The notes beneath the pieces are model-generated. The model was not told the DNA's origin and did not search any database. It saw only the letters and a list, made by a program, of their open reading frames with translations. From contig CM059437.1 in NCBI GenBank assembly GCA_030390025.1, forward strand, positions 54,374,001 through 54,438,000: 64,000 nt of DNA, read 5' to 3'. A program made the translations under genes and the position numbers. This document shows, piece by piece, positions 2,621-47,295 of this stretch (position 1 is the stretch's first letter; the number at the start of each line of letters is the position of its first letter). The DNA is from Squalus acanthias. Taxonomy: Eukaryota.

Positions 2621-2626
2621 TGTGTC

Positions 2627-10975: not shown

Positions 10976-11123
10976 GTAAGTCGAGTGCTGTAAAAGTCTT
11001 CAATATTCCTGCTCTTTGTATTACGCTGATCGGGTGCTGTACTTGAGCTTCACCGGTCTGAATTGCAATTATTTTCCACGATTTTACTGAAGGTCACTTG
11101 TTAATAACTTTTTATTTCTCCAG

Positions 11124-14400: not shown

Positions 14401-14484
14401 GTGAGAAAGTAAACGATTGAATGCAGACTCTTTACATCCAATTCAGAGTGGATCTTCACAGGCTGTTCCTACTTTGCTTTTTAG

Positions 14485-14807
14485 ATCCGCGGGCCCCCTC
14501 GGTGACCGTCCTTCCGCCTTCACCGGATCAAATCAGGGAAAAGAACACGGCGACCCTGGTGTGTCTGGTGAACCGCTTCAACCCGGGCGCTGTGGAGATT
14601 GAGTGGACTGTAGATGGTTGTGTCAGAGGGAATGGTGTTGTGACCAGTCGGATCAAGCAGGAGACGGACAACACATTCAGTGTGAGCAGTTATCTGACTC
14701 TACCAGCCTCAGAGTGGAACTCACATGAGCTTTACACCTGTGTGGTTAAACACGAGACTCAGGCAAACCCGCTTAAAACAAGTATCTCCAGATCCAGCAG
14801 TATCTGA
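14485..14807 (+). CDS. IGL: Ig light chain constant exon C1 (lacks the C-terminal Cys)
   Basis: TTTTAG acceptor; PRAPSVTVLPPS..ATLVCLV..EW..FSVSSYLTL..YTCVVKHE..SRSSSI*. L+VJ+C = 49+351+323 = 723 nt, an open 240-aa frame. Confidence 0.95.
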
Positions 14808-14919
14808 CAGAATAATCTTACGTATTCGTCTAATATACCATCAGCAAACTTTCTTTGAACAAAGTTCGAAATTAAAGGTTAGATCTTTTTGGTTTAATTG
14901 CTGTATTTCAAGTTATAGC

Positions 14920-16424: not shown

Positions 16425-16650
16425 GTGTAACCGCAGCTCCTGCACCTGTGGCCGTGTGACCGGGGCTCCTGCACCTGTGGCCATCTAACCGGGGCTCCGC
16501 TTGCCGTGTAACCGGGGCTCCTGCATCTGTGGCCTTGTAGCCGCGGATCCTGCACCTGTGGCAGTGTACCCGGGGCTCCTGTACCTGTGGCCGTATAACC
16601 GGGGCTCCTGAACATGTGGCTGTGTAACCGAGGCTCCTGCACATGTGGCC
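16425..16650. repeat. 29-bp minisatellite, 8 units (GTGTAACCGGGGCTCCTGCACCTGTGGCC)
   Basis: Units visible directly; paralog with 6 units at 47123-47290. Confidence 0.9.
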
Positions 16651-16654
16651 GGGT

Positions 16655-18353: not shown

Positions 18354-18635
18354 AAAACAAAAGCAAAATACTGCTGATGCTGGAAATCTGAAATTAAAGT
18401 AAAAAAATGCTGGAAATACTCAGCAGGTCAGGCCGCATTTGTAGATAGAGAAACAGGGTTAACATTTCAGATCGAGGATTTATCATCAGAATTGGTGAAA
18501 GTTAGAGATGTTACAGGTTTTAAGCAAGTACAGAGGCAGGGAAAGGGGGAGGGGAGGAAATAACTAAAAGGAAGCTCTGTTGTAGGGTGGAAGGCCGAGG
18601 TAATTAAACGACAAAACGGATGATAGTGCAAGGCC
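18354..18635 (-). mobile_element. Penelope-like terminal-repeat fragment with a degenerate hammerhead motif (paralog ~48993-49275), within CR1 debris
   Basis: Same family as the palindrome at 63599-63822; minus strand has CTGATGA..GAAATGTTAACC at 18457-18493. Confidence 0.55.
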
Positions 18636-20578: not shown

Positions 20579-23500
20579 GGGAGAGAAATTCATTATAGCT
20601 CAGAATAGGCCTCTAACTTTTAAAAATTGACGATTTAATGCCAGGCGCTGATGATTCAGACTGCACGCTAAATTAAGTGATAGCGCTCAAAGGGACACTG
20701 GAGCGCTAAATCAAGTGCTAATAACCCAGTTCAGTGGCGCTACACTCAGAGCACTAAGCAATTTAAGGTACAGTCTAATCGTTAGTCAAGAATGACACAG
20801 GCTCTTTTCAATTCTAAAAGGGAGGTTCAATCATGCTGCAGAACCTCATACTCACCATTGCTGACTCTGAAGTCGAAGGACCGCTGAAGAAGCTTGCATT
20901 ATGGCAGTTCCACGGCCCAGAGAGAGAGAGCTCGGCGATTCACGGACCAGGCATTGGAGGCCTTGGTCCTCAACGTTGAGAAACGGAGGGTGGTGCTGTA
21001 CCCGACAAGTGGCAGGAGGTCCTTACGACAAGTCTTCCACCCACAGCATGTGGAGGGAGATGGCCCAGCAGGTCTCGGGCTGCACTGTGGTCCCAAGGAC
21101 TCTAACACAGTGCAAGAAGAAATTTACCGACCTCACTCGGGTGGTCAGGGTGAGTAAATGCTACGACTACTCCTACATACCACCATCTCAACCTCAGTTT
21201 GCACACACTGCCCAAAGCACCACACTCCCAGTACTCACCCACCAACAATCTGGACCTACCAACACTCATACCCACATCTCACACCTTGCATACAATGACT
21301 GCTATTCAACAATGGCAGGCACATCTCCTAAACACATTGCTGCAGACTCATTTACACCCTTTCCTTTCTCTTGCAGGCCAAGGTCCCTCGCATCAGGATG
21401 GAGCAGAAGCACACAGGAGGGGACAACCTGATACACAACCACTCTCTGACCTGGAGGAGCGAGTGCGTTGCATCATTGGGTGTCAGGTGATGGGCGCCGT
21501 GGCGGCCAGTGACGTTGACCCCCTTGTGGACAACAACGGTATATTCATCCTTACTCCTTCTCACATCCCACTTTTCCCCCCACCCCACAAGCCTTTTCTA
21601 CTTTCCAGTTAATCATACTGTATGCATGCCTTTCTCCCTTCCTGCCACCCTCCCCTCACCTTAACTGAAATCTTGTGCCTTTATGTTTTCAGATAGTGAC
21701 CAGTAGCTGAGCAGCCTGTAGCTGAGGGTTCCGCTCAGATCAAGCTGAGAGACGAGGAGAATGAAGAACACACCGCGTCACTGCATGTCTCACCCGCAGG
21801 CACCGGCTCAGATACTGGTACTACGCATTCTTTAGAGGGAGTATAGTAGTGGGGTCTGCAGTGGGAGAGCGGGCTACAGCAAGTCCAGGGGGAAAGGATC
21901 GTTTGGGAGCCAGCTCCCCAGATGGCGAGTTCATGCATGAGTTCTGCAGCACAGGACGCGGGTGAGGATATCAATGGGGAGGCCTTTAAAAGATGGGTGA
22001 TGGGCATGCACATGGAGATGATAGGTGCAATGGCAAGGGTGCCCGAGAGCCTTTCGGCAAAGGTAAGGAGTGTGGAGGAGTCCACCTCCAATATTGCACA
22101 AGGCTCTGCGCACACCATGGAGCCCATCATTTCCAGTCTGCAAAGGATGGTATAATCCCAGAGAGACCATGGCGATCCAGACCTCATGCCGCATGTGATT
22201 GGCGATCTGGCATCTTCCATTGCAGCACAGGCAGAAGCTACACAACGTCTTAGTGCTGTAATGCAGTCTATGCTCGGTGGCATCCAATCTCAGACGGCTC
22301 TCCTGTCACAGAGAAATTAAACAAATTGAGGATTGGTTAACGGACAGAAAACAGAGAGTGGGAGGAAACGTGTCATTTTCGGGTTGGCAGGCTGTAGCTA
22401 GTGGGGTACCACAATGATCAGTGCTTGGGCCTCAGCTATTCACAATCTACATCAATGATTTGGATGAGGGAACCAAATGTAATGTATCCAAGTTTGCTGA
22501 TGATACAAACCTAGGTGGGAATGTAACTTGTGAGGAGAATGCAAGGCGGCTTCAAGGGGATAGAGACAGGCTGAGCGAGTAGGCAAGAACATTGCAAATG
22601 GAATATAACGTGGAGAAACGTGAAGTTGTCTACTTTGATAGGAAAATAGAAAAGCAGAGTATTTCTTAAATGGTGAGAGATTGGGAAATGTTGGTGTTCA
22701 GAGGGACATGGGTGTCCTTGTACACGAATCACTAAAAGTTAACATGCAGGTACAACAAGCAATTAGGAAAGCAAATGCTATGGTGGCCTTTATTACAAGA
22801 GGATTTGAGTGTAAGAGTAAAGATGTCTTACTACAATCATATAGTGCCGTGGTGAGACCACACCTGGAGTATTGTGTACAGTTTTGGTCTCCTTACCTAA
22901 GGAAGGATATACTTGCCATAGTGCAACGAAGGTTCACCAGACTGGTTCCTGGGATGGGGGATTGTCCTATGAGGAGAGATTGAGTAGACTAGGCCTATAT
23001 TCTCCAGAGTTTAGAAAAATGAGAGGTGATCTCATTGAAACATACAACATTCTTACACGGCTTGACAGGGTAGATACAGGGAGGATGTTTCCCCTGGCTG
23101 GGGAGTCTAGAACCAGGGGACACATTCTCAGAGGAGGGATCGGACAATTAGGACTGAGATGAGCAGAAATTTCTTCACACAGAGGGTGGTGAATCTTTGG
23201 AATTCTTTACCCCAGAGTGCTGTGCAGGCTCAGTCGTTGATTATATTCAAGACAGAGATCGATAATTTTTTGAATATTAAGGGTATCAAAGGATATGGGG
23301 ATAGTGCAGGAAAGTGGAGATGAGGTTGAAGATCAGCCATGATCTTATTGAATGGCGAAGCAGGCTCAAAAGGCCAAATGGCCTACTCCTGCTCCTATTT
23401 CATATGTTCTTATGCTGCCGCCCATACTGAGTGGTGTAGTCTGCAGCCGGGCCTTGCAGTCCCAGAGCTGGTCGAGGGCATCCTGAAAGGGCATCTTAAG

Positions 23501-25407
23501 TCCCCACATGGACACTCAGCAGCCTTCCACCATCCGTGCTGCAGCCACTGAGCCAACACTTCGTAGGAGCACCAGAGTAGGCCAAGGCACAGTAACGAGG
23601 GGCACTAAGGAATTGCACAGGGGTGAATAGTTAATAGATTTGTTGTAAATATGTGTTCACTTATTATTGATAAAATTATTAATTCAGTTGGGATTCTTTA
23701 GTGGAGTGTCTCATTTCGGCTTTGCGCTGTTATATGGCCTGTGACAGGGATGGAATGATGGAGATGTGGTGAGCAACGGGGATGTGGGGTTCAATTCATT
23801 GGAACCACAGTCTGATGAGGCGGTCACGGTCCACCCTTCCAGGAGGCCGATTGAGTGGCTGCCTCCTCCCTCGCTCCTGTTCCTCGTCCTCCTCCTCATC
23901 CTCCTCCTCGTCTTCATCCTCGTCCTCGTCCTCGGCCTCTTCTTCCTCCTGTGGTAGTCCCGCAATCCTTGGTGGCAAGGGCTCGGCCCTCATGATGGCC
24001 AAGTTGTGGAGCATGCAGCAGGCCACCACGAAATGGGACACACACTCAACCAAGTACTGGAAGGCTCCTCATGAGCGGTCAAGGCAGCGGAACCATTGCT
24101 TGAGCACCCCGATGGCCTGCTCGATGATGTTCCTGGTGGTGGTATGGCTCTCATTATATGAGTGCTGACCAGGACTGTTGGGGTTGCAGAGGGGAGTAAT
24201 AAGCCAGGTGGAGAGCGGATAGCCTTTGTTTCCGACCAGCCAGCCACGAGCTTCATATGCTGGCTGGAAGAGTGCTGGCACACCGGTCTGGTGCAGAATG
24301 AAGGCATCGTGGCTGCTGCCATGATAGTGAGCATTCACATTGAGGATTAGCTGTCTGTGGTCGCACACCAACTGCACATTAAATGAGTGATAGCCTTTGC
24401 GGTTATGGAAGACCTCAGGATTGTTATGCAGTGCTCGCAAAGCCACGTGGTGCTGTCAATGGTGCCCTGCACCACGGGGAAGACCGCTATCCTGGAAAAG
24501 CCACATGAACACTCGTCCTCCTTCTCTCTGGTGATGGGGAAGGAAATGTAGTCCCTTCTCCTACTGTAGAGAGCCTCTGTGACATGCCAGATGCAGCGAT
24601 GGATGGCGAACTGCGAGATGTTAGCTATATCTCCTCTTGCAGACTGGAAGGAACCGCTGCTGAAGAAATTGAGGGCGACAGTGACCTGGACTGATAGAGC
24701 CGTGGTCGCACTGATCTGAGGCTCGAGGTCAGGTTGCAGGAGGTGTCAGAGTTCTGTGACCACCTCCTTGCTGAAGCGGAGCCTTTTATTACACTGCTCC
24801 TCACTAAATTGGAATACCCTTGGAGGGTAAGGACTCCTGTTGAGAGCCCTGATGGCCCTCCTCCTCCCTCTGGCCACATGTTCAAATCTTTGTTGCCGCC
24901 TCAGCTCCCTCCACCATAGATCCTGGAGGGCGAGGTCGACTGCCAGTACAGGCCCCACTTAGATATCTTTCCAGAATAAATATCACTAATTCTTAGCAGC
25001 CAGAACACTCGTGAAAGTAACAAACCTTTAAATTAGTGAATTCAGCTGTTTCACAATCTCAAACTGACAAGGAAGCAATGAAACAGCACCAACCTGAAAG
25101 CTGCGACTGATCCCTTTAAATAGCGCCCCTGGAGCTGCCTTCCACCTGCATCACGCCTCCACTTCCTGTCGTCGTTGGGGCGAGGCGCTAAGGCAGGGGG
25201 CGCTAACTGAGCGTTGCACACTCGTTCACGTCACAATCTTTCTGGTGCTAAAGGCCCAGGCACTAACTGTTAATATTTGTACTAAAGGGGGACTGAATTT
25301 AATGTGCTGCACTGCATTCGCTGTGCCCCAGCGCTATAGGATTGGCACACTGTTAGCATCTCTGCCAGGCACTAACGGGAGGCAAAAACCGACTGAATTT
25401 CGCCCCT
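20579..25407. mobile_element. PIF/Harbinger element C, copy 1 (degenerate Myb/SANT gene on +, degenerate transposase on - at ~23796-24958)
   Basis: Imperfect 14-bp TIRs GGGAGAGAAATTCA / TGAATTTCGCCCCT, flanked by CGC and CAC; empty paralogous site with a single CAC at 8645-8647. Myb motif RARRF..LEALV..W..CKKKFTDL (20894-21150); transposase HNRKGYHS..HDAFI..GNKGY..IEQAIG. Confidence 0.9.
22307..23413 (+). mobile_element. CR1 3' fragment inserted in the Myb gene of Harbinger C copy 1
   Basis: FADD, RPHLEYCVQFWSP and RGDLIE motifs plus a CR1 tail. Confidence 0.9.
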
Positions 25408-26440: not shown

Positions 26441-27601
26441 CTGGGGGTTGCACTGATTGGGGGCGTCGTCCTGCGCCACCAGAATCGGAGGACACAGAGA
26501 CGCAGAGAGAGAGTGGCAATCATGGCCAGACGGAGGAGGGCCAACAGGCCTCTGTACAGGAGACCTTACCCTCCCAGGGTATATCGCCAACAATTCACAT
26601 CTATTAATATGTCTGAGGAGCAGAGTTTGCGAAGGCTGCGCTTCAGCAAAGAGGTAGTCACTGAGCTCTGCCATCTGCTGCAGCCAGATCTGCAACCTCA
26701 ACTGAGGTCCAGGACGTCTCTGTCGGTGGCAGTGAAGATCACAGTGGCTCTGAACTTTTATGCCACTGGCTCATTTCAATCAGCTACTGGGGACATCGCC
26801 AATATCTCCTAGTTCACGGTGCATTGCTGCATCCATCAGGTCACAAATGCCCTCTTTAAAAAGAGACGAGAGTGTATCTCTTTCCCCATGACCCCAGACA
26901 AGCAGCAAGAACGCGCAATGGGCTTTGCTAGGATAGCGGGCTTCCCCATGGTGCAGATCGCCATTGACTGCATGCATGTGGCTTTGCATGCTCTGCATGA
27001 GAATGCCGAGGATTTCCGCAACAGAAAGGGGTTCCATTCCTTAAACGTTCAGTTGGTCTTTGACCACAGACAGCTGATACTCGCTGTCAATGCCCACTAT
27101 CCTGGCAGCTGCCACGATGCATTCATCCTGCGCCAGACTACTGTGGCAGAACTTTTCCAGGCACCACATCAGCCAGTTGGTTGGCTTCTCGGGGACAAGG
27201 GATATCCACTGAGCACCTCGCTGATGACACCGCTCCGTACGCCCAACGCCCCTGCTGAGCTGCCGTACAACGAGAGCCATCAAGCTACCAGGAACATCGT
27301 TGAGCACACAATCGGCGTGCCCAAGTAACGGTTCCGCTGTCTGGACCATTCTGGAGGAGCCCTGCAGTACTCGACTGAGCGAGTTTCCCACTTCGTAGTT
27401 GTGTGCTGCATGCTGCATAACCTGGCAATCCTCAGGACCCAGCCAATGCCACCAGGCCTTGGAGCACCACCAGAGGAGGAGGAGGAAGAGGAGGAGGAAG
27501 AGGAGGAAGATGATCATCAGCAGCACCAAGGCGGGAGGGGGGCCCACAATGTAGAAACTGGAAGGGCCGTCCGTCAACGGCTGATAGCAAGCCGCTTCTA
27601 G
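26441..27601 (+). pseudogene. Harbinger (HARBI1-family DDE) transposase of element B with two premature stops
   Basis: ORFs 26372-26812, 26819-27328 and 27401-27601 are in one frame; IDCMH, GDKGY and RNIVEHTIG catalytic motifs present; stops TAG 26810-26812 and TAA 27326-27328. Start uncertain (CTG 26441 by homology to element C, or ATG 26522). Confidence 0.9.
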
Positions 27602-27900: not shown

Positions 27901-29774
27901 CTACTTTTTGCCCTTCGAGGGTGATCTCCTTCCCTTGCGCACTTCCCCCCTTCCCACCCTACTGCTCCTCCGTAATGGGACCTCAGTGGCTGCAGCAAGG
28001 CTGGTGGAAGTCTGCTGATTGTCAGAACCTGAGACTGCAGATGCCCTTGAAGGACGGCCTCGACCAGCTCTGGGCCTGGAGGGCCTGGCTGCAGACTGCA
28101 CCAACTCTGCATGGGCGGCAGCAGTCTGTCCTACAGGCAGTGGCAAGTGCAGTGGAGAAGTGACAGTGGTGGCAGCAGGAATGCTGTCATCTTGAGAGAG
28201 GACAGCAACTCCCTGCTCGACCGACACAATGGCACTCCCACGGGGCAGCAATTCAGCATCTGGAACAATCTGCTGGAGCACAGATTGCTGGCCTGCTGCG
28301 GCGCCGTGAGAGCCCAGGGGAAATGTGTACGAACCATCGAGGATGGCAGCTGTCAGTGCTCGCGTGGCCTCAATCTGAGTCTGCATGAGAGCAGTCTGAG
28401 ATGGGTTCATGGCAGCCAGTGACGGAATTGCAGCACTAAGCTTTAGTGTGACATCCGCCTGTGCTACAATGAAGTGCTCCACACTCCTTGCCAGTGATTC
28501 AATGCATTCGGGCACCCTACCCACTGCACCCAAGAGCTCAGTGTGCATGTCCACCGCCTGGGTGTTCATTTCAGCGATAAGCCGCTCCTCCTCTGCGTCC
28601 AGTGCAGTAGGACTCGCTGGCATACTCTCCCTCTGGGGAGAAGGCCCGCGAGCTTCCCAACCCCCATGGCGTTGCTGCAGCCCGCTGGGTCCTGGAGCTT
28701 CACCCTCATCAGAACCTTCCCCCCTGCTCCCCTCCAGGGAAGGCGTGTTCCCAGTGTGGGCATGGGCTTCCTCGGGAGAGGGTGGCGCTGATGCTCCGCC
28801 TTCATCTTCCTTCTTGGCTGCAGCTTCACTCCCACTGGCAGCTTGAGGGCCCGTCCCATCAGCTGGTGAATCACCATCTGAAAGCAGGGAGGTACAAGAG
28901 TGTCTTTAGCGTGAGGACAGGGGGGCAGTAAGGGAGGAATAAGTGCAGCGATTTAGTAAGTTGGATTGAAAGTGTCAAAGGCTGGTGTTGTGAGGGACAA
29001 GTGGAAGGACAGAGGACAAAAAGGTGATGACCTTACCATTGCTGTCCAGAACGGGGTCGGCGTTTCCAGTGGCGATGGGACCGATCACCCGGCTTGCCAC
29101 AATCCTGTGGACACGCACCTCAAGATCGCTGAGGGGTTGCAGCTGAGGCCGCCCTCCACCCGTCCGTTGCTGCTGTCTCCTATTATGAGATAGCTTGGCC
29201 TGCAAGAAAAAGGACGACGTCTGAGTAAATATACAGCCATGGTCTTGCCTGATGTGCCTCCCATAGGTGAATAGTCCTTACTGTATGCAGCCATGGTCTT
29301 GCCTGATGTGCCTCCCATAGGTGAATAGCCCTTACTGTATGCAGCCATGGTCTTGCCTGATTTGCCTCCCATAGGTGAATAGCCCTTACTGTATGTAAAG
29401 TGTGGAATGTGCGTGTGTGTTTCATGAGAGGGCCATAGGTGTTGGATGAGTGTTGTGCATTGGGGTTTTTAGACCCTCTGGCCATAGAGTAAGGTTGAGA
29501 TGGAGGGATGGAGAGGTATTGAAAAAAAGCCACTCACCCTGATGGTCCGAGTAAGGTCGTTGAACTTTTTTCGACATTGTATATGGGTCCTGGGCACTAT
29601 GCTCCTGGAGGAGACGCTCTGAGCCACGTCCCTCTGCACTCTTCTGTACTCACGTGGCAAAGGCCTCCTGCCACTCTCAGGGAAGAGTATAGATCTTCTG
29701 CGCTCCACCGCGCCAACCAGAGCATCCAAGGCCCGTTTACTGAAGCGCTGAGCTCGTTCTCTCACCCTCTCCAT
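27901..29774 (-). CDS. Harbinger Myb/SANT-like DNA-binding protein, 3 exons (29774-29538, 29199-29037, 28877-27901), predicted intact at 458 aa
   Basis: Exon 1 RERAQRFSKRALDALV..CRKKFNDL; exon 2 AKLSHNRRQQQRTGGG; canonical GT-AG introns of phase 0 and 1; 237+163+977 = 1377 nt with no internal stop in my manual translation. Confidence 0.8.
29234..29395. repeat. 54-bp tandem repeat x3 in intron 1 of the Myb gene
   Basis: Units start at 29234, 29288 and 29342. Confidence 0.9.
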
Positions 29775-31528
29775 AGTCCTTGGCTAGAAGATTTAGGCAC
29801 ATGTCTCTCCAGGCCGAGATTCAAGGCTCCAATGAGCAGGGTGTGGCTGGAGTGCACGATCGACCCTCCCCTTTAAGAACTGTCCGGCGCCAGTGTCTCT
29901 TTGTTCCATCGCTAACTGACAGCACCTGCGCTGTGCCCGCACTCTGAGAAAGCGCCTCGCTCCTCGGCCTTTGCGCCTTAAGACAGGTGTGTAGCGCCAG
30001 GCGCCAATCTTCGCGCCCGGCCGATAATTGCGCCCCAAATGGGGTGATACTCAATTTCTCCCCCATAGACTTATACAGCACAGAAAGAGGCCCTTCGGCC
30101 CATCGTGTCCGAGCTGGCCATCAAGCCCTGTCTATTCAAATCCCATTTTCCAGCACTTGGTCCGTAGCCTTGTATGCTATGGCGTTTCAAGTGCTCATCT
30201 AAATGCTTCTTGAATGTTGTGCGGGTTCCTGCCTCTACCATTCTTTCAGGCAGTGAGTTCCAGATTCCAACCACCCTCTGGGTGAAAAGTTTTTCCTAGA
30301 ATCCCCTCTAAACCTCCTGCCCCTTACCTTGAAACTGTGCCCCCTGGTTATTGACCCCTCTACTAAGGGGAAAAGTTCCTTTCTATCTACCCTATCTATA
30401 CCCCTCATAAGTTTGTACACATCAATCAGGTCCCCCCTCAGCCTTCTCTGCTCTAAGGAAAACAACCCAAGGCTGTCCAGTCTCTCTTCATAGCTGAAGC
30501 GCTCCAACCAGTTAACATCCGGGTGAATCTGCTCTGCACCCTCTCCAATGCAATCACATCCTTCCTATAGTGTGGCGACCAGAACTGCACACAGTATTCC
30601 AGCTGTGGCCTAACTAGCGTTTTGTACAGCTCCACCATAACCTCCCTGCTCTTATATTCTATGCCTCGGCTAATGAAGGCAAGTATCCCATATGCCTTTT
30701 TAACCACCTCATCTACCTGTCCTGCTACCTTCAGGGATCTATGTACATGCACACCAAGGTCCATCTGATCCTCTGTCCTTCCTAAGGTCCTACCATTCAT
30801 TATGTATTCCCTTGTCTTGTTAGTCCTCCCAAAATGCAGCACCTCACACTTTTCAGGGTTAAATTCCATTTGCCACTGTTCTGCCCATCTGACCAACCCG
30901 TCTATATCGTCCTGTAGCCTGAGGCTTCCCTCCTCGCTATTTACCACTCCACCAATTTTCGTGTTATCTGCGAACTTACTGATCATACCTCCTACATTCA
31001 TATCTAAATAATTAATGTACACTACAAACAGCAAAGGACCCAGCACCGATCCCTGTGGTACACCACTGGACACAGGCTTCCAGTCACAAAAACAACCTTC
31101 GACCATCACCCTCTGCCTCCTGCCAATAAGACAATTTTGGATCCAATGTGCCAAGTTGCCCTGGATCCCATGGGCTCTTACCTTCTTGACTAGTCTCCCA
31201 TGCGGGACTTTGTCAAAAGCCTTACTGAAGTACATGTAGACTACATCAACTGCACTACCCTCATCCACACACCTAGTCACCCCCTCGAAAAATTCAATCA
31301 AATTGGTTAGACATGATACCCACCTGACAAAGCCATGTTGACTATCTTTGATTAATCCTTGCCTCTCCAAGTGGAGACTAATTCTGTCCCTCAGAATTTT
31401 TTCCAATAATTTCCCTACCACTGATGTTAGGCTCACTGGCCTGTAATTCCCTGCTTTATCCCTACTACACTTCTTGAATAATGGTACTACGTTAGCTGTC
31501 CTCCAGTCCTCTGGCACCTCCCCTGTGG

Positions 31529-31768
31529 TCATGATGCGGAGATGCCGGTGTTGGACTGGGGTGGACAAAATTGAGAGGTCGCACAACACCAGGTTATAGT
31601 TCAACAGTTTTATTTGAAATCACAAGCTTTCGGAGCTATCGATTTGCTCCTTCCTCAGGTGAAGTGTACCTTCACCTGAGGAAGGAGCAAATCGATAGCT
31701 CCGAAAGCTTGTGATTTCAAATAAAACTGTTGGACTATAACCTGGTGTTGTGCAACCTCTCAATTTTG
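31529..31768. mobile_element. Palindromic Penelope-like mini-insertion (99-bp arms 31566-31664 / 31670-31768) with 13-bp TSD
   Basis: Arms are reverse complements with 2 mismatches; ACCTCCCCTGTGG duplicated at 31516-31528 and 31769-31781. The Penelope assignment is inferred from the hammerhead and inverted architecture. Confidence 0.8.
31672..31714 (+). ncRNA. Minimal type I hammerhead ribozyme motif (mirror copy on the - strand at 31620-31662)
   Basis: TCAC-CTGAGGA-A-GGAGC(AAATCGATA)GCTCC-GAAAGC-TT-GTGA: stem I TCAC/GTGA, core CUGANGA and GAAA, stem II GGAGC/GCTCC, palindromic AAGCTT helix III. Confidence 0.7.
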
Positions 31769-31974
31769 ACCTCCCCTGTGGCCAGAGAGGTTCTGAAAAT
31801 TTGTGTCAGAGCCCCTGCAATCTCCTCCCTTGCCTCACACAGCAGCCTGAGATACAACTCGCCTTGGTCTGGGGATTATCCACTTTTAAGCCAGCTAAAA
31901 CCGCTAGTACCTCCTCCCTCTCAATGCTAATTTTTACAAGATACAATAATAGAATGAAGCGCCAAGACACTGAA

Positions 31975-32235: not shown

Positions 32236-33460
32236 GACGGGATGTCAATTTAACCCATCTGTCCTAGGTATCGAACACCAGAACCTCTTGCCTGTACAGC
32301 GAAAGGGTGAGGAAATAAAACATTAAACACTCGCAACATGATTAAGAATTGTTGTCGTGAACTGTTTGTGGAGTTCACTGATAAAATAATTTAATGTTTG
32401 GACAATAAAAGAGTGGCTCCCTTTTGGAGATCTTCCCGTTCTGTTTCCCACATGATAGAAAGAGCAGCAGCGTAAAGGGCGTAATTAAATGCCCATCTCT
32501 GGTTAACTGCCCTAAATAGCAACGACTTACTTCAACCTGTTGGTTCACATAGTTCACGCTCTTCTGCGCAATGAAGCAAGTTAATCTTCAATGCACCTCT
32601 ACAGTATGTAACAGTTCGCTCTCCCAGACCATCGCCTGCCGGTAGCGCGGGTAGTACAATCTACCCTCTGAGCGATTCCAAGGTCTCCATAATGAGCGAT
32701 AATATTGATGCCATTCTCTCTCTAAAAAAAGCACTCCCCTTTAAAACATGGAATTAAAAGCTGCAGTTTTTAAAGATTTTGGGAGAACTAGTTTGCAGAA
32801 TATCATCATCAAATATTGTTTATTGACGTTGTTGGATTTAAAAATGAGTTATTCGTGGGCGATGAATGTCAAAAATGGAAGAAAATCGAAATCAATAAGG
32901 TTTGTGTTATCAGAAGAATAAGGAGATGTGCGATATGCCACATTCTCTGCTCGCAACCTTCAGTTGTCTTAGTGCAGTGGTTGAATCACTGTAGCTTGAT
33001 ATCTCTTTCGATTGAACAATAATCAATGCGTAAAATTGCACAGTGCAGTTTTGCTATACATACCTTTCAGGTTTGCATGTAATTCGATTGGCCTTCATTT
33101 TAACAGATTTTTAATAGTGTAATGTCTCTGTTAAATAGCAACAATGGAATTTCATGTGAACTCATTCAGCGTCCCCATGCTAAAATGGACAACGTGATTT
33201 CACCTCAACTATTTCTGCATGTCGAGACGAGTCCAGTATTTAAAAAATATATTGGCTAAAATTCACTTTATGCAAACGTCAATCAGACCAATTCCAATGA
33301 TCCAATAAACGGCCGCGAGATGTAGAAATTTGAATAAATATTAAATGCGACCTGATAGCCCCCTGTGTAATTGCTTTTAAGGAGAGGTTTAGAAGGTGCC
33401 GCATCATTAGGGTCGTGCAGGGAAACATTTTGCTCTGATCTTGTTAAAAAAATCTGCAAA

Positions 33461-34009
33461 ATGAGTGAGTGGCTTCGTGTTCTCGCCGCCCTGATGTGCT
33501 GTTTGCAATGTAATTAGAGTGCTGTAAAAGTCTTCAATATTTCTGCTCTTTGTATTACGCTGATCGGGGGCCGTAATTGAGCTTCGCCGGTCTAAATTGC
33601 AATTATTTTCCACGGTTTTACTGAGGATTATTTATCAATAACTTTTTATTTCTCCAGGTACCAACGCGGGTTCGGGTGCTGACTCAGCAACCGTCCATCT
33701 CAACTTCACTGGAAAAAGTCGTCACAATCACTTGCACCATGTCCGGAGGCAGCAAGGGCAGCTATCACACGAGCTGGTACTGGCAGAAACCCGGCAGTGC
33801 CACTGCCCTTGTTTGGAATGACTATGATTCGAGCAGAGGTTCGGGGATTCCTGATCGATTCACTGGATCCAGGGACACGTCGATCAACGTCATGCATTTA
33901 ACCATCAGCAATTTACAATCCTAGGATGCCGCCGATTATTACTGTGGTGCCTGGGGTGGCAGTCCTGTTGTATTCACTTTTGGGAAAGGAACTGAACTGA
34001 ATCTGGGAA
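33461..34009 (+). pseudogene. IGL: Ig lambda-type cluster 2 leader (33461-33509) and fused VJ exon (33658-34009), pseudogene
   Basis: +1 frameshift (TCGG replaces ATT near 33672-33675); TAG at 33922-33924 in the V frame; octamer mutated to ATTTGAAT (33328-33335); CDR3-J CGAWGGSPVVFTFGKGTELNLG. Confidence 0.92.
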
Positions 34010-34680
34010 GTAAGTAAATTTTTCGCTGTGTACGTCGGGGATTCTTAAAGTGTGAGTTTTCAATTGTTGGTTTAATCCGGTTGTTGTGAAAATGCTTTCG
34101 AACATACATTTATAATTCTCCCTCTTGGTGGTTAGAGGGAGATGTATTTCTATTCTGTTTGTTAAATGCTCATGAAACTGTCGCACAACAATTGCAATGT
34201 TATGGATGAAGTTCCAAATAATTATTTTTCGGTGGGTGGAATTCAGCCTGCACCAGTGTAATTATAATTTATTGGTGATTTGCAAAACATTCGTAAAGTA
34301 TTGGTCAATCTGTTTGAGGCGGCATTAAAAAATATCTGGACACTTGTGACTGCCATACATTATCCTCGCGCTGTTCTTCATGACTCGGGTAGAGCTAAAA
34401 AAAAAAACTACAACGTGAAATATTTTATAATTCCCCGACACGGTGCCATTAAAAATTCCCAATCAGAGATTGGGAGCGTGTGTCATTCATGCGATACTCT
34501 CAGTATTGTATTTCATGTTAGTCATAATTTCACTTGTAAGTAACGGATAATTATATTGGGTTTGGGATTGGGTTAGAAATCTTAATATAAATTACAGATT
34601 TTAAGAAGTTGATGGTCTTTTCTGCAGACAGGGATATTGAGGTTATCAGAGATAAAATGTGATTAGAGGTTTGTTGCCTT

Positions 34681-35423
34681 GGGCCAAAAATTCATCCCGC
34701 TGCGCGAGAGTACGCACTGCGTACTCTCGCGTATTCTCTCTCCAATTGCCGGTTTTCTGCATGCCCTGCGCATGCGCTGAAAACCGGCACTTGGTCTTTT
34801 GAAAAGGGGGCGGTTCCTCGGTGCATCGCGTGCGCGCTGCAGGCTGCTCGCACGCTGTGCACTTCGTGCTTTGGACGCGCAGGTAAGGACGGAAGATTTT
34901 AGAAATGGAAAAAGGAGGAGTAAGACCCACTTTTAACAAGGTAAGTAGTGAATTAAGTATTTTTTTGAATTTTTTTTAACAGGTATATCTTTTTTAGAGA
35001 CTTTAAAGACAGGTAAGTTTATTTTTATAACTTTTTAAAAGATTTTAAATTTTTTCAAAAATTTAATTTTTAATTTAAAATGGTTATTTTATTTAACTAT
35101 ACTTATTTTATTAATGTGATGGTTTTTTTTTAAATTTAATTGAGGTTTAGCTGTTATTTTGGGGGTGTGTAAGATTCATATATTTCACTGTACGTATGTG
35201 AAACTTATGAATGGAAGATGGTGTGCTGCCATTGGCTCTAACTGAGTCACGTGATCCCACAGCTCGCACGAATTCACTACGCCGGTGGGATACGCAAGCA
35301 CTGCCCAGCTGATGTCTGGAACATCAAGTTCGTGCGAGCTGGATCTGAAAAAGCCAACGCGGAGTGAGAGATGGCGGGGAAGCCTTACCCCCGCGGGAAC
35401 AGAGCGAGATCAATTTCTGGGCC
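34681..35423. mobile_element. ~743-bp Harbinger-type MITE in the J-C intron of cluster 2
   Basis: TIRs GGGCCAAAAATT / AATTTCTGGGCC; GC-rich hairpin ends and an AT-rich core; absent at homologous sites (~12170, ~61805); inverted copy at 49878-50621. Confidence 0.8.
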
Positions 35424-37368
35424 ATTTATGATTGGAGACGGCCATATCCTGTCTGATAGAGTTCTTAATTGTTAATAAATTTGTTAATTTATTTATCGGT
35501 CAGTAAAAAAGTATAACGCTACAGTTAATCCGAGAGATTCAAACGGCATTTTTATTGGGATAGTTAGCTACAGGCTGTAGAAAAGGCGCTGCGTTGTTTA
35601 TAATTTCTTCCATTCAATTTACATCTGGTGCAAGTTAAACTTAAAAAACAATTTTAGCAGAGTAGGAGATTATACTTTCAAACTATTTACACGTCTGGCG
35701 GTGGGTTTGTATGAATTGGTAACTTTCTCACGTCTGGATCAGAACGTTTTAGATTCAAGCCCCTTTTCCAGGCGTAACACCGGAACATAGGAACAGGAGA
35801 ACACGAGGGAGTCCCTTGAGGCTGTTCCAACATTCCATTTGATCATGGCTGATATGTACCTCCACTCCATTTATCAGCCTTTGTTCCCTATCCCTTGATA
35901 CCATTAGCCTACAAAAATCTATCGACCTCAGTCCTGAAGATCTCATTTCACCCAACAGCCACAACCGTTTTGGGGCAGGGAGTTTCAGATTTCCACCACC
36001 CTTTGTGTGAAAGAGTGCTTCCTGGTTTCATTCCTTAATGCCCTAGCTCTAATTTTAAGACCTTGCCTTCTTGTTCTGGATTCCCCATCAGAGGAAATAG
36101 TGATATGAAGGGAGTGCGGCATTGAAGGAAAGGCCTTCCTTTCGATAACGTCATTAAGAGACGTTCCACATTCCTGTTCAAGGGGACGTTCACGATCCCG
36201 TTGCCTTATTCAAGGGGCAGCAGAAAATCACAGCCCATAACCACACCCCCGCCTCAATCATTGCCTTAAAGGAAAGGGATTTGTGTCTGTAGCTTCTTGC
36301 TTTGTTTAAGTTTACTATCATTGCGCATCAAAGTAATATAAGTGAAAACTGATGTGGTGCTATATAATGCTACTCGTTATTCTTTTTACACTAACATAAA
36401 CAAGTAGAAGCAGCTGATCTTTCTGCAGCAGATGGTTCCTCGCCTGACTAGGCAGCTAAAAGCCGAAATACTGGGTAGCGATTACATCAAACAACGTCTC
36501 AAGCGTGACTCTGCCAGGTGCAATTGTAACCCCAGCATTCAAATTATAGCCGGTTGAAAAGAAATGAACAGATTGGAGCTCTGAATCATTGAACATGTTG
36601 GGCGGTGACTTAATAGAGATCTTTAAATTTATGAAAGGTTTTGATAGTGGAGACGTAGGAAAAACGTTTCCACTTGAGGGTTAGTCCAAAACCAGGGGTC
36701 ATCAATATTAGATTGTCACTAATAAATACAAGAAATAATTCAGGAGAAACTTCTTTACCCAGAGACTGGTTAGAATGTGGAACTTGCTGCCACATGGAGC
36801 AGTTGAGGCGAAAAGCTGAAATGCCTTTAAGGGGAAACTCGATAAGTACATGAGGGAAAAAGGGATCGAAGGATATGCAGATAGGGTTAGATGAAGTAGA
36901 GTGGGAGGATGCTCGAGTGGAGAATGAACACCGGCACAGACCAGTTGGGCCGAATGGCCTGTTTCTATGCTGGATAGTCTATGTAATTCCATGTAATAAT
37001 CGAAGAAAGTTTGGCGCCGATGAGCGTGATTATTCTTGCATCGTAATATTCTCAATATGTTTGGACTACAGTTTAAATAAAGAAAAACTATGATCTTCAG
37101 GTTTAATCCAAATAAGAGTGAATAGTCGTTCAGGTTTTTTTCTCGATGCACGGAGCTCTCGGTTTTTCTTAAATTCGTTATATCGTTTTATCGATCAACG
37201 GACACTATGTCATCAGTTAAATAACATTACTAATCTCTCATTGTAACATTCTTAAGCTTGTAAAGTGGTCCCAAATATAAAACGTTGAAAAAGTAAAACG
37301 TTGAATTTCGACTTTTCACATCCAATTCAGAGTGGATCTTCACAGGTTGTTTCTACTTTTCTTTGTAG

Positions 37369-37691
37369 AACCGCGGGCTCCGTCGGTGACCGTCCTTCCG
37401 CCTTCATTGGATCAAATCGCAGCAAAGACCACGGCGACCCTGGTGTGTTTGGTGAACGGCTTTAAACCGGGTTCTGTGGAGATTGAGTGGACTGTAGATG
37501 GCAGTGTCAGAGGCAATGGTGTTGAGACCAGTCGGATCCAGCAGGAGACGGACAACACGTTCAGTGTGAGCAGTTATCTGACTCTGCCAGCCTCAGAGTG
37601 GAACTCACACGAGCTTTACACCTGTGTGGTTAAACACGAGACTCAGGCAAATCCGCTTCAAACAAGTATCGCCAGATCGAGTTGTATCTGA
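37369..37691 (+). CDS. IGL: Ig light chain constant exon C2 (intact, canonical ..SSCI end)
   Basis: TTTGTAG acceptor; PRAPSVTVLPPS..LVC..YTC..SIARSSCI*; its partner VJ2 is disabled. Confidence 0.92.
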
Positions 37692-38490: not shown

Positions 38491-41400
38491 GTAAAAAACT
38501 GTTGAGGGGGATGACTCACCAGGGGAGTGCAGCAGCAGCCAACTTCCTGGTACCAGGGTTGATTCTGTTGCTCAGAAAGGGAGGAAAAAGAGTGGGAGCG
38601 CAATAGTGGTAGGGGATTCTATCGTAAGGGGAACAGATAGGCGTTTCTGTGTCCGTAAACGTGACTCCAGGATGGTTTGTTGCCTCCCTGGGGCCAGGGT
38701 CATGGATGTCACTGAGCGGCGACAGGGCATTCTTAAGGGGGAGGGGTAGCAGGCAGAGGTCGTGGTTCACATTGAGACCAACGACATAGGTAGGAAGGGG
38801 GATGAGGTCCTGCATCAAGAATTTAGGGAGCTAGGCAGCAGATTAAAGAGCAGGACCTCAAAGGTTGTAATCTCTGGATTACTCCCAGTGCCACGTGCTA
38901 GTGAGTATAGGAATAGGTGGATAGAACAGATGAATGCGTGGCTAAAGAGTTGGTGCAGGAGGGAAGGTTTTAGTTTCCTGGATCACTGGGCCTGCTTCTG
39001 GGGAAGGTGGGACTTTTACAAGTCGGACGGTTTGCACCTGAACCAGAGCGGGACAAATATCCTTGCGGGGAGGTTTGCTAGCACTGTTGGGGGAGGTTTA
39101 AACTAACTTGGCAGGGGGATGGGATACAGAGTGGAGCTACAATAGGGGGTGACGTACAGTCAAATATAGAGAAAAAAACAAGTCAGCTTGGAAGACACGG
39201 CAAACATGTAAGAGCAAGGCTGGAAGGCATCTATTTTAATGCAAGGAGTCTAGCGAATAAGGTGGATGAACTGAAGGTGTTGATAAACACATGGGAGTAT
39301 GATATTGTTGTTATCACGGAGACATGGTTGAGGGAGGGGCAAGACTGGCAGCTCAATATTCCGGGGTACAGAATCTTCAGGCGAGACAGAGGGGGAGGTA
39401 TAAGAGGAGGGGGTGTCGCAATATTAATTAAAGAATCAATTACTGCCATAAGGAGGGATGATATATTAGCAGGTACCTCCAATGAGGCTATATGGCTGGA
39501 GCTTAAAAACAAAAAGGGGGCAAGCACTTTGCTGGTAGCGTACTATAGGCCCCCAAACAGTCAGGGGGAGATAGAGGAACAGATATGTAGGCAAATCTCA
39601 GAGAAATGTGCAAATAATAGGGTAATAATAATGGGGGACTTCCACTTCCCCAATATTAACTGGGATAGTCAGAGTGTGAAAGGCTTAGAGGGTTCAAAAT
39701 TCTTAAAGTGCATCCAGGAGAGCTTTTTGAGCCAGCATGTAGAAAGTCCTACAAGAGAGGGGGCGGTACTGGACCTAATTCTAGGGAATGTGGCCGGCCA
39801 AGTGGAAGAAGTGCTAGTAGGTGAGCACTTTGGTGACAGTGACCATAATACGGTGAGATTTAAGGTGGTCATGGAAAAGGACAGGGATGGGCCGGAAATA
39901 AAGGTTCTAAATTGGGGGAAGGTCGATTTTAATAGGATAAGGCAGGATCTGGCCAAAATTGACTGGGATCAGCAGCTTGTAGGAAAATCCGCATCGGAGC
40001 AATGGGATTCTTTCAAAAGAGAGATTGAGATCATACAATGGCAGCATGTTCCCGTAAAGGTCAAGGGTGGTTCCAAAAACCCCAGGGAACCTTGGATGTC
40101 AGGGGATATACGAGAATGGATCAGGAAAAAAAGGAGGGCTTTTGGCAGATACAAAATGCTAAAGACAGAGGAAGCCCTAGAGGAGTACAAAAAGTGCAGG
40201 GGGATACTTAAAAAAGAAATTAGGAGATCAAGGAGGGGCCAGAAAATAACACTGGCGAGCAAAATAAAGGAGAATCCTAAGATGTTTTATAAGTATATTA
40301 AGGGTAAGAGGATAACTAGGGAAAAAATAGGGCCCATTAGGGACAAAAGTGGCAATCTGTGTGTGGAGCCGGAAGATGTAGGTGGGGTTCTAAATGAATT
40401 TTTTGCATCTGTTTTCACTATGGAGAAGGACGATGCAGACATAAAATTAGGGCAGGGGGACTGTGATATACTCGAACATTTTAACATCGAGAGGGAGGAG
40501 GTATTGGCGGTTTTAGCAGGTCTAAAATGGATAAATCCCCAGGTCCGGACGAAATGTATCCCAGGCTACTATGTGAGGCAAAGGAGGAGATTGCGGGGGC
40601 TCTAACACATATATTCAGAACCTCTCTCGCCACAGGGTATGTGCCAGAGGACTGGAGAACCGCTAATATAGTACCATTATTCAAGAAAGGGAGTAGGGAA
40701 AAACCGGGGAACTACAGGCCAGTGAGCCTAACATCAGTGGTAGGAAAATTATTGGAAAAAATTCTGAGGGACAAAATTAGTCTCCACTTGGAGAGGCAAG
40801 GATTAATCATGGTTAGCCAACATGGCTTTGTCAAGGGAAGATCATGTCTGACTAATCTGATTGAATTTTTTGAGGGGGTGACTAGGTGTGTGGATGAGGG
40901 TAACGCAGTGGATGTGGTATACATGGATTTCAGTAAGGCCTTCGATAAAGTCCCGCACAGGAGACTGGTCAAGAATGTAAGAGCCCATGGAATCCAGGGT
41001 GCCTTGGCACATTGGATACAAAACTGGCTCAGTGGCAGAAGGCAGAGGGTGATGGTCGAAGGTTGTTTTTGTGACTGGAAGCCTGTGGCCAGTGGGGTAC
41101 CAGAGGGATCGGTGCTGGGTCCCTTGCTGTTTGTGGTCTACATTAACGACTTGGATATGAATGTAAAAGGTATGATCAGTAAGTTCGCGGATGATACAAA
41201 AATTGGTAGGGTGGTAAATAGCGAGGAGGGTAGCCTCAGTCTGCAGGACGATATAGATGGGTTGGTCAGATGGGCGGAACAGTGGCAAATGGAATTTAAT
41301 CCGGAAAAGTGCGAGGTGATGCACTTTGGAGGGACTAACAAGGCAAGGGAATACACAATGAATGGTAAGACCCTAGGCAAGACAGAGGGTCAGAGGGATC

Positions 41401-42110
41401 TTGGTGTGCAAGTACACAGATCCCTGAAGGCGGCGGAACAGGTGGATAAGGTGGAAAAAAAAGGCATATGGGATATTTGCATTCATTAGCCGAGGCATAG
41501 AATATAAGAGCAAGGAGGTTATGATGGAGCTGTATAAAACACTGGTTAGGCCACATCTGGAATACTGTGTGCAGACTGGTCGCCACACTACAGGAAGGAT
41601 GTGATCACTTTGGAGAGGGTGCAGAGGAGATTCACCAGAATGTTACCCGGGCTGGAGTGCTTCAGCTATGAAGAGAGACTGGGCAGATTGGGTTTGTTTT
41701 CCTTGGAGCAGAGGAGGCTGAGGGGGGACATGATTGAGGTGTACAAAATTATGAGGGGCATAGATAGGATGGATACTAAGGAGCTTTTTCCCTTAGTAGA
41801 GGGGTCTATAACAAGGGGGCATAGATTCAAGGTAAAGGGCGGGAGGTTTAGAAGGGATTTGAGAAAGAACTTTTTCATCCAGAGGGTGGTTGGAGTCTGG
41901 AACTCACTGCCTGAAAGGGTTGTGGAGGCAGGAACCCTCACAACATTCAAGAAGCATTTGGATGAGCACTTGAAATGCCATAGCATACAAGGCTACGGAC
42001 CAAATGCTGGAATATGGGATGAGATTAGACAGGGCTTGATGGCCGGCGCGGACACGATGGGCCGAAGGGCCTCTATCCGTGCTGTATAACTCTATGACTC
42101 TATGACTCTA
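38491..42110 (+). mobile_element. Large CR1 LINE (ORF1 esterase part plus ORF2), frameshifted
   Basis: ORFs 38762-39106 (DGLHLN), 39262-40605 (APE), 40527-41489 (RT, FADD) and 41601-42089; (TATGACTC)n tail; absent from the paralogous flank near 15600. Confidence 0.95.
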
Positions 42111-45184: not shown

Positions 45185-45507
45185 ATCCGCGGGCCCCCTC
45201 GGTGACCGTCCTTCCGCCTTCACCGGATCAAATCAGGGAAAAGAACACGGCGACCCTGGTGTGTCTGGTGAAACGCTTCAACCCGGGCGCTGTGGAGATT
45301 GAGTGGACTGTAGATGGTTGTGTCAGAGGGAATGGTGTTGAGACCAGTCGGATCAAGCAGGAGACGGACAACACATTCAGTGTGAGCAGTTATCTGACTC
45401 TACCAGCCTCAGAGTGGAACTCACATGAGCTTTACACCTGTGTGGTTAAACACGAGACTCAGGCAAACCCGCTTGAAACAAGTATCTCCAGATCCAGCTG
45501 TATCTGA
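45185..45507 (+). CDS. IGL: Orphan Ig light chain constant exon C3 (no own L/V/J)
   Basis: Differs from C1 at only 4 nt; intact acceptor and ORF ending ..SRSSCI*; no V or J between 37691 and 45185. Confidence 0.88.
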
Positions 45508-47122
45508 TAGAGTAATCTTATGTATTCGTCTAATATACCATCAGCAAACTTTCTTTGAACAAAGTTCGAAAGTAAAGGTTAGATCTTTTTGGTTTAATTG
45601 CTGTATTTCAAGTTATAGCAATAAATATGCAGTTAGTTTGTTTGCTTGATTCCACTAGGTGTACCCAAGAGTGTGCTGACTCTGCAGTCATCATACCTTT
45701 ACTGTCTCATTGCAGTGTAATAAAATTATTGTTCCACTGTCTCAGATGATATTATTCTTTCCTTGCTTTAATTCTCTCCGAATTTATGATCATTTTTAAA
45801 ACGTCCAAATCTCGAGATCCACTCTTTGTAGACATTTGCAAATTTTCATAAAACTGCCAAACTCTCAGTAGAAATAAAGATTTAACAGAACGGATGAGTG
45901 ACGGGTCGAACTATAACAACGTATAAAATGCTAAATTCGGTTTGTACATTAATTGAACTACATTGCGACTGTGATTGCGTTTAATATTCTCCCTTTTCTG
46001 AATGACCTCGGTGAAAACTATATAAATACAAAATATCGTTGTATCATACACATTGGAAAAGATAAATCTTAATCAGAATTCCAGTAGAATAAGAATATAA
46101 ACTGAATTGAAAAGAGAACGCATAGAAACATAGAATGATGCCGCACAGAAGGAGGCCATGAGGCCCATCGGGTTTGTGCCGGCCCTTTGGAAGAGCTTGT
46201 CCAATTAGGCCCACTCCCCTGCTCTTTCCCCATAGCCCTGCTATTTCCTCCCCTTCAAGTATTTCAGCGCCATCTCTGAATTCATGCCACAAGTAGTTAA
46301 AGCACGCATCCCATGATCAGAAACATTCAGATGTTCGAATTTATTTTGAATCAATTTTAATTGCATTGATCAGAGGCATAAGAACACGAACAGTACAAAT
46401 ACCCCTTTTTGCGCAAAAGGCTTAGTGAATCAAAGGTATCGCTGTGCAGTGTTCGGTGGTGTGCACAAATAACGGCTAAATTAGGATAACTTGACATGAG
46501 CAGAATGCATTATGGATGAATGCCTTGAGAATTACTAATGTTACTATGGGACAAACTAGTTTAGGCATAATGGGAAAGTACATGAATGAACTCATCGAAG
46601 CCATGTAAGAAAACAGACATAAGAGATATTGAGATAAAGGAACTGGAATCGTCTGCTACATATAAGGTTAGAACAAGGGATACAAAGACAGCAGTTGGGA
46701 TGGAGTTCCAAGGGCAGAAATATTACAACTCTGTTCAGCTATGCCTGTTTGCTAATCTTTATAAATATGAATGATCAGCAACAAAGTTCAGTCCCAGCGC
46801 TGCAAACTGCCATGAACAGTATCGTTTGTATGTCCCAAATCGACATTCTACTTCTGCTTTCATAGACGTCTATTACTTACTTGTAGTCTTAGTGCGCTCT
46901 CAAATATCAATAAATATCAGCCAATGTATCACTTACACATGTGTCTTAGAATCTGTTATTTAATTTATATAGAACAGTTTTGGCGAACATAGAAGATAGG
47001 AGCAGGAGTAGGCCATTCGGCCCCTCGAGCCTGTTCCAACGTTTAATGAGATCATGGCTGATCATCCAAATTCAGTACCCAGTCCCTGCTTTCTCCCCAT
47101 ATCCCTTGATCCTTCTAGCCTT

Positions 47123-47290
47123 GTGTAACCGCGGCTCCTCCAACTGTGGCCATGTGAACGGGGCTCCTGCACCTGTGGCCATCTAACTGGGGCTCCTGTT
47201 GCCGTGTAACCGGGTCTCCTGCATCTGTGGCCTTGTAACAGCGGATCCTGCACCTGTGGCAGTGTAACCGAGGCTCCTGCACATGTGGCC
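47123..47290. repeat. 29-bp minisatellite, 6 units
   Basis: Paralog of 16425-16650. Confidence 0.9.
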
Positions 47291-47295
47291 TGATT

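Follow-up and report, generated by a model that had tools for sequence, protein, structure and literature searches.

A palindromic insertion with two opposed hammerhead motifs in a shark light-chain region, a likely truncated Penelope-like insertion

What is a 240-bp palindrome that carries a minimal hammerhead motif on each strand, and how could it have arisen among the immunoglobulin light-chain genes of a shark? The preliminary description of this locus proposed a mini-retroelement of Penelope-like origin with two ribozymes. The proposal was followed up computationally in the whole 64,000-nucleotide stretch of DNA that contains the palindrome, referred to here as the window.

Immunoglobulin light-chain clusters of the germline-joined VJ plus C type are arrayed along the window; multiple VJ-C clusters have been described for cartilaginous-fish light chains (PMC2193156). 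The exons were located as follows:

11125, 33659 and 60782: VJ exons
14485, 37371 and 45185: C exons

Apart from its top match, which was labelled Aeromonas and is probably contamination, the C exon had four named animal matches, all of them lambda-like chains of sharks and rays (Mustelus asterias, 82%). The cluster organisation, these matches and the affinities of the LINE RT given below identify the host as a cartilaginous fish, most likely a shark. Harbinger-like transposase remnants were detected in the window with Pfam. No tRNA genes were found in the window by ARAGORN, and therefore there was no intact tRNA-like SINE head by this program. The palindromic insertion, designated E1, sits in a broken LINE; the middle cluster follows, its promoter lying about 1.5 kb downstream of E1. 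This cluster, with a frameshift, a stop and a mutated octamer, looks like a pseudogene.

Structure of the insertion and its target site

The features of E1 and of its host element were as follows:

30064 to 31930, minus strand: host LINE, 5'-truncated, CR1-type, with its RT region interrupted by E1; 84-88% identical to the LINE at 40481 to 42096
31516 to 31528, no strand: left copy of the target-site duplication (TSD), 13 bp, or, with one mismatch allowed, 16 bp up to 31531; single in paralogous LINEs
31529 to 31565, minus strand: one-sided tail of 37 nt (34 nt with the longer TSD), a length that fits the 30-40 bp tail of Penelope-like elements (PLEs)
31566 to 31664, minus strand (sense): left arm, putative 5'-truncated pseudo-LTR (pLTR) copy, delimited by inverted-repeat pairing
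31620 to 31662, minus strand: minimal type I hammerhead motif, with C3 at 31658 and H17 at 31624, from descriptor match and consensus fit
31665 to 31669, no strand: head-to-head junction TGTAC, with a 4-bp palindrome inside
31670 to 31768, plus strand (sense): right arm, putative 5'-truncated pLTR copy without a tail, delimited by inverted-repeat pairing
31672 to 31714, plus strand: minimal type I hammerhead motif, with C3 at 31676 and H17, a U, at 31710, from descriptor match and consensus fit
31769 to 31781, no strand: right copy of the TSD, 13 bp, exact

The dimensions given in the preliminary description were all obtained again: an insert of 240 bp (31529 to 31768) flanked by an exact 13-bp direct repeat, arms pairing over 99 nt with two mismatches (31601/31733 and 31580/31754; 97 of 99 positions identical), a 5-nt centre and a 37-nt extension on the left only. 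The centre had been described as a loop. Its length was correct, but it contains the palindrome GTAC and is one base off perfect symmetry. Likewise, the ribozyme motif is located beside the symmetry centre but begins 2 nt into each arm rather than immediately after the centre. The sense strand of the tail is C/A-rich (26 of 37 nt) and terminates in an ATG at positions 31532 to 31530. No ORF was found in the insert, in which this ATG at the tail end is the only one in sense orientation and the hammerhead frames contain stops. No tandem array overlapping E1 was found either.

The host LINE has an RVT_1 (Pfam) match on the minus strand, and the highest identity of its RT among the named animal matches was to Hypanus and Scyliorhinus proteins (63-64%). 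Two paralogous LINEs in the window, at about 40.6 kb and about 4.7 kb, contain the target sequence of E1 once and lack the insert. The direct repeat is thus a real target duplication. Its G+C content is 9/13. Only two long, closely spaced inverted repeats were present in the 64-kb window, namely, E1 and a second insertion at 63.6 kb (E2). Exact 13-mer repeats at a spacing of 200-300 bp were found 14 times in the window; 11 of them were GT-rich simple repeats, and the remaining three were the duplications of E1 and E2.

Long near-perfect palindromes are a known type of artefact in sequencing and assembly, and such a fold-back error was considered for E1. It was rejected as scarcely credible, since the mirrored sequence is foreign to its flanks, the LINE resumes collinearly beyond the clean duplication, the arms differ at two sites and the tail is not mirrored.

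The hammerhead motif and its predicted folding

Hammerheads were searched for with a descriptor that comprised the core boxes, helices I and II, helix III as a hairpin or palindrome, and UH. Exactly two matches were obtained in the 64 kb, at 31676 on the plus strand and at 31658 on the minus strand, and none in 100 dinucleotide-shuffled windows (0/100). As the two matches mirror each other, they count as one event; their C3 positions are 18 bp apart. The plus copy consists of a 4-bp helix I (UCAC/GUGA), the core CUGAGGA with an unpaired A, a 5-bp helix II, GAAA and a palindromic AGCU. A hammerhead search had been named beforehand as a check on the motif, and its outcome was divided. Our own descriptor found both copies, but the Rfam models reported no hammerhead. 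At the gathering threshold, the whole window gave 0 Rfam matches; at E<=10, E1 gave 13 sub-threshold matches of the hairpin type, and the motif taken separately gave one chance match, with no hammerhead in either case.

The E1 motif satisfies every position of the published consensus of PLE minimal hammerheads (Cervera & de la Pena 2014, PMC4209133, Fig. S3), that is, CUGANGA with an unpaired H, the G10.1-C11.1 pair, helix II, GAAA, the palindromic positions 15/16, UH, a short helix I and an AU-rich 3' flank. The core octamer, including G at position 7, is identical to that of the Latimeria(1) row in this alignment, helix III (AGCU) and H17 to those of the Chrysemys row, and helix I to that of the Petromyzon row. 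In a by-eye count of 44 alignment rows, which did not extend to the first rows of the figure, H17 was U in 20. The examined part of the alignment has no shark row, and the words "shark" and "Callorhinchus" are absent from the supplement searched. With the consensus followed throughout and the descriptor results given above, the reading of the motif as a minimal type I hammerhead was upheld. The predicted cut positions, taken from H17 of the descriptor, were again 31710 (+) and 31624 (-).

In the isolated 51-mer, helices I and II formed with pair probabilities of 0.70-0.80 and about 0.96, respectively, and the stability of this 51-nt motif was unremarkable relative to shuffled sequences (z -0.89). 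The full E1 transcript folded as a near-perfect hairpin of -187.5 or -181.9 kcal/mol, depending on the strand. In the plus-strand transcript, the pair probabilities of helices I and II were 0.0, in agreement with the masking of the ribozyme that had been foreseen. A transcript of either strand contains one sense hammerhead and its complement. Therefore, a dimer in cis is impossible, and a cis-dimeric ribozyme pair was rejected as a candidate. For isolated motifs, a rough model gave -20.1 kcal/mol for the catalytic dimer versus -31.7 kcal/mol for the best dimer, which pairs via the loop II palindrome.

The cleavage triplet of E1 is CUU; among engineered hammerheads, triplets of this class are the weakest (PMC8879150). 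For PLE minimal hammerheads, it was reported that monomers are inactive and dimers weak (PMC4209133; review PMC6765202), and the hammerhead of an anole PLE required its protein (PMC11167929). The E1 hammerhead is probably inactive in place. Ribozyme cleavage was also rejected as the maker of the E1 ends; neither boundary is located at H17.

A second insertion of the same build and the Penelope-like reading

Further evidence came from E2 and from older relatives of E2 in the window:

63585 to 63836, no strand: E2, unrelated to E1 in sequence, of the same build; 14-bp TSD (copies at 63585 and 63823), insert 63599 to 63822
18362 to 18620, minus strand: E3a, older single-orientation copy of the E2 family, 5' boundary approximate; its paralog, E3b, is at about 49001 to 49260

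The E2 insert is 224 bp long, with perfect arms of 92 nt (92/92) and a tail of 28-35 nt on the right only. The G+C content of its TSD is 6/14, and its site is empty in three paralogous segments. E1 and E2 share no significant sequence, the best match being 7 nt. E2 contains a hammerhead core in which the palindrome is ACGU and position 17 is U (U17), but this core is split across the arms and is whole in neither of them: one arm is cut just before C3 and lacks a complete 5' strand of helix I, and the other is cut at the start of helix II and lacks the first core box. The arms meet at a 2-nt microhomology (AA/TT), and the 7 nt of the junction read as antisense on the strand that lacks the tail. 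Relative to C3, the arm ends at +96-98 in E2 and at +92 in E1, and the tail ends at about +127-134 and at +126-129, respectively. Both inversion junctions are located no more than about 11 nt from C3, the first base of the core.

The E3 copies, which represent one event that was subsequently duplicated, are not inverted. They extend at least 100 nt farther 5' than E2 and end at the tail point of E2. Read by eye, they no longer have the helix III palindrome or all of helix II; neither a TSD nor a clean empty site was found for these copies. Since neither arm of E2 has a whole hammerhead, paired ribozymes are not required for such insertions. The two whole hammerheads of E1 look like a chance result of truncation a few bases farther upstream, that is, a by-product of integration and not a design.

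This layout has published counterparts. In endonuclease-bearing (EN+) PLEs, an inverted 5'-truncated copy is found at the 5' end, and a tail of 30-40 bp is often present at one end only (PMC8557442). Adineta copies have inverted pLTRs, a 31-bp tail, TSDs of 8-10 bp and palindromes at head-to-head junctions (PMC3846280), and the Penelope element of D. virilis has a 34-bp repeat at the start of its ORF (PMC2377424). Like Adineta Pen2a and D. virilis Penelope (PMC8557442, Fig. 2), E1 has a head-to-head inverted 5'-truncated copy, a tail of this kind at one end, a target duplication, a palindrome at the inverted junction and a location inside another non-LTR element. It is an extreme case among them, with pLTR ends only and no ORF in between, and the TSDs of E1 and E2 (13-14 bp) are longer than the 8-10 bp of Adineta. 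Pairs of minimal hammerheads on opposite strands, probably derived from truncated PLEs, have also been described, at distances of 100-700 bp (PMC4209133), compared with 18 bp between the C3 positions of the ORF-less E1.

In the anole element PAc (Poseidon_Ac) of Anolis carolinensis (Frangieh et al. 2024, PMC11167929), as in E1, the hammerhead lies just upstream of two internal RT start sites with an AC-rich tail between them. PAc differs from E1 in that its ORF starts inside the hammerhead. The anole PLE enzyme also prefers AT-rich DNA, although this is a tendency and not a strict criterion (PMC11167929), whereas the E1 target is GC-rich.

With a consensus minimal hammerhead, inverted truncated pLTRs, a one-ended tail and a TSD all present, the proposed Penelope-like origin was retained. 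It is likely that E1 is an ORF-less, dead-on-arrival insertion of an EN+ PLE consisting of two heavily 5'-truncated pLTR copies placed head to head, a limiting case of the PLE layout in which just the two pLTR ends are left; this assignment is drawn from motif and architecture. E1 is not an autonomous PLE. No PLE RT or GIY-YIG was matched by Pfam among the 164 window ORFs of at least 85 aa (20 + 144), a six-frame motif scan of the window revealed neither, and the RVT_1 matches in the window belong to APE-type LINEs. Peptide searches with the 30-aa frame that ends at the tail ATG yielded no homologue, which is weak evidence. A second copy of E1 was absent from the 64-kb window. When bacterial and archaeal genomes were scanned, neither a pLTR 20-mer nor the hammerhead pattern identified any locus, and the 141-nt sense unit had no blastn match among plasmids and phages.

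As an alternative, E1 could be an independent non-autonomous palindromic mini-retroelement with a family of its own, the 240-bp unit being copied into RNA and inserted again in one piece by a PLE protein. pLTR 3' ends are present at both termini of E1, and such cis signals were sufficient for trans mobilisation in Adineta (PMC3846280); PLE-derived non-autonomous retrozymes occur in vertebrates, including one chondrichthyan (bioRxiv 10.64898/2026.07.22.740005); and E1 and E2 are similar in size (240 and 224 bp). However, the 99-bp duplex hides the hammerhead (pair probability 0.0) as well as the RT start region. The junction of E2 is asymmetric, and the E2 family also exists in an uninverted and longer form. 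In addition, the arms are near-identical or identical (97/99 and 92/92), as a single insertion event predicts. An element that propagates itself by means of two ribozymes was therefore not borne out: the layout is that of a published by-product of PLE integration, and E2 has the same build without a complete hammerhead. Transposition of the 240-bp unit as such is considered improbable.

Animal non-LTR retrozymes resemble E1 in being short, non-coding and related to pLTRs, in having a type I hammerhead and in their chondrichthyan occurrence. They are head-to-tail tandems, in which neighbouring hammerheads can dimerise and release circles (bioRxiv 10.64898/2026.07.22.740005), whereas E1 is head to head with one sense hammerhead per transcript. 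Considering this inverted layout and the absence of a tandem array at the site, a non-LTR retrozyme was rejected, and the lack of such an array likewise counts against a mini-retroelement.

A short, non-coding inverted repeat with a TSD would also be expected of a MITE or foldback DNA transposon with an incidental hammerhead match, and the Harbinger-like transposase remnants of the window are compatible with such an origin. MITE families typically have TSDs of 2-9 bp, far below the 13 and 14 bp found here. Furthermore, the inverted repeat of E1 ends 37 nt short of the left end of the insert, a full minimal hammerhead consensus would arise by chance in fewer than 1 in 100 windows, and a hammerhead core together with a tail is common to two elements of unrelated sequence. 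Because of the one-sided 37-nt tail, the long TSD and the hammerhead, a MITE was rejected as hardly tenable.

Retention of E1 as a functional RNA was also considered, either as a co-opted hairpin (endo-siRNA or miRNA-like) or as a regulated ribozyme acting on the light-chain cluster. The full transcript forms the near-perfect hairpin of -187.5 kcal/mol, small RNAs arise from Penelope copies in Adineta and Drosophila (PMC3846280), and E2 is located downstream of an intact-looking VJ exon, where a J-C intron would be expected. E1 itself, however, is in a broken LINE, and the cluster downstream of it is the one with the frameshift, the stop and the mutated octamer. The Rfam miRNA matches were far below the gathering score and reflect a generic hairpin, the insertion is missing from the paralogous LINEs, and the loss of hammerhead parts from the older E3 copies, read by eye, leaves no sign of selection. 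A retained function is thus very improbable. An output of dsRNA or small RNAs from E1 or E2 is possible, and more plausible for E2 than for E1 because of the position of E2 relative to the intact-looking VJ exon; the corresponding C exon would fall past the end of the window.

A possible route of formation and its meaning

The protein of the anole PLE nicks the two strands of its target and extends each of them. Reverse transcription begins at two internal sites, the interval between which becomes the tail; insertion is just as efficient when the hammerhead is dead, the template being unprocessed RNA (PMC11167929). Extension of both target strands on an uncut RNA template would be common to PAc and E1. 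In the route proposed for E1, both strands would be nicked 13-16 bp apart by the RT-GIY-YIG protein of an autonomous PLE located at another place in the genome, and each 3'-OH would prime cDNA synthesis on uncut pLTR RNA. One cDNA would begin at the outer start site and carry the tail, and the other would begin at the inner site, 34-37 nt upstream, and lack it. Both cDNAs would end just 5' of the hammerhead and be joined via a microhomology of a few bases, GTAC in E1 and AA/TT in E2. The hammerhead would be inherited pLTR cargo that in the parent may act as a weak, dimer- or protein-dependent ribozyme. Since both arms of E1 keep about 41 nt upstream of the cut site, the template RNA appears to have been uncut.

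Antisense self-priming, which has been proposed for PLEs (Arkhipova 2013, PMC3846280), would give the same product as this twin priming. The E2 junction, being antisense on the tail-less strand, fits either of them; the same bases exclude a plain snap-back of the tail-bearing cDNA. Twin priming is somewhat favoured by us, the priming route being deduced from two junctions, those of E1 and E2. The formation of inverted pLTRs by PLEs is described as unsettled in the literature (PMC8557442, PMC3846280).

E1 and E2 have in common an inversion near C3, an uncleaved cut site, palindromes of 224-240 bp and the same internal geometry. As a hint from two insertions, the hammerhead region could mark the RT end, whether through its structure or because it is where the RNA begins. 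A more far-reaching suggestion, which we regard as doubtful, is that in shark PLE families the hammerhead fold, or a protein bound to it, acts less as a nuclease than as an RT stop or strand-switch signal.

Taken together, E1 is probably a small, dead scrap of a Penelope-like retrotransposon. Its arrangement, in which mirror-image element ends each have a minimal hammerhead, has already been described in other animals. In the literature searched, neither shark PLE hammerheads nor ORF-less pLTR palindromes as a class were found. E1 adds a cartilaginous-fish example to the known PLE hammerhead palindromes, none having been found in print by these searches. Such ORF-less PLE palindromes are easily misannotated as MITEs or miRNA hairpins. 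Repeats of both kinds, that of E1 and that of E2, are abundant in shark assemblies. Short, young, TSD-flanked palindromes with known empty sites offer junctions whose counts can separate twin priming from antisense self-priming. If the reading of the hammerhead as a stop signal were true genome-wide, sharks would have a stereotyped class of PLE hairpin insertions that lack ORFs; their junctions would record the PLE integration mechanism base by base, and long dsRNA could be produced in B cells from some copies, such as E2, at 63.6 kb in a light-chain intron.

The tail and loop II of E1

E1, the 240-bp palindromic insertion with a minimal hammerhead motif in each arm, has a one-sided extension (tail) that ends in an ATG. 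This ATG was found to be in frame with the reverse transcriptase (RT) of the host LINE, giving a frame of 359 codons (31532-30453, minus strand) with an RVT_1 match inside. This shared frame was probably due to chance; the ATG may be the start codon of the parent Penelope-like element (PLE). Loop II of the E1 hammerhead contained ATCGAT, a 6-bp palindrome (31691-31696), which in folding drove a predicted alternative extended dimer.

Other repeats and light-chain clusters

The following repeats were found in the window:

2613-6059 and 38750-42096: long CR1-type LINEs with GDSL-esterase ORF1, AP endonuclease and RT
1915-2523, 20871-21431, 24072-24455, 26813-27328 and 29472-29783: DDE_Tnp_4 and Myb/SANT fragments
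16425-16651, 47124-47291 and 29230-29395: 29-bp and 54-bp minisatellites

Both long LINEs were broken by stops or frameshifts. The DDE_Tnp_4 and Myb/SANT fragments were consistent with remnants of PIF/Harbinger transposons. Large segmental duplications (83-95% identical) were also present.

Lambda-like light-chain clusters of a cartilaginous fish, with germline-joined VJ plus C, were arrayed in the window:

10760-14810
33295-37691
45185-45510
60417-61137

At 33.3-37.7 kb the octamer of the cluster was changed and its sequence carried a frameshift and a stop, as in an apparent pseudogene. No VJ exon belonging to the C exon at 45185 was found within the window.

Two database proteins with bacterial labels matched shark sequences: P0007, labelled Klebsiella pneumoniae (source contig 1602 bp), was 69% identical to the LINE RT, and P0121, labelled Aeromonas veronii (source contig 652 bp), was 81% identical to the Ig C exon. 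Both probably represent host contamination.

E2 and its uninverted relatives

63585-63836: E2, a PLE-type palindromic insertion with perfect 92-nt arms, a 14-bp target-site duplication, a one-sided tail and a split hammerhead
~18362-18620 and ~49001-49260, minus strand: E3 copies, older, uninverted members of the E2 family within CR1 fragments

The hammerhead was decayed in the E3 copies. Directly upstream of its core, they carried a pyrimidine tract and a CTAAC resembling a branch point but no AG, an arrangement reminiscent of the D. virilis intron whose end, according to PMC4209133, falls at helix I.

Seven bases of E2 (63816-63822) had no match in the target or in the other copies of the family. 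A VJ exon that looks intact, as does its octamer, precedes E2, so E2 probably lies in a J-C intron. If so, a long hairpin would form in the pre-mRNA.
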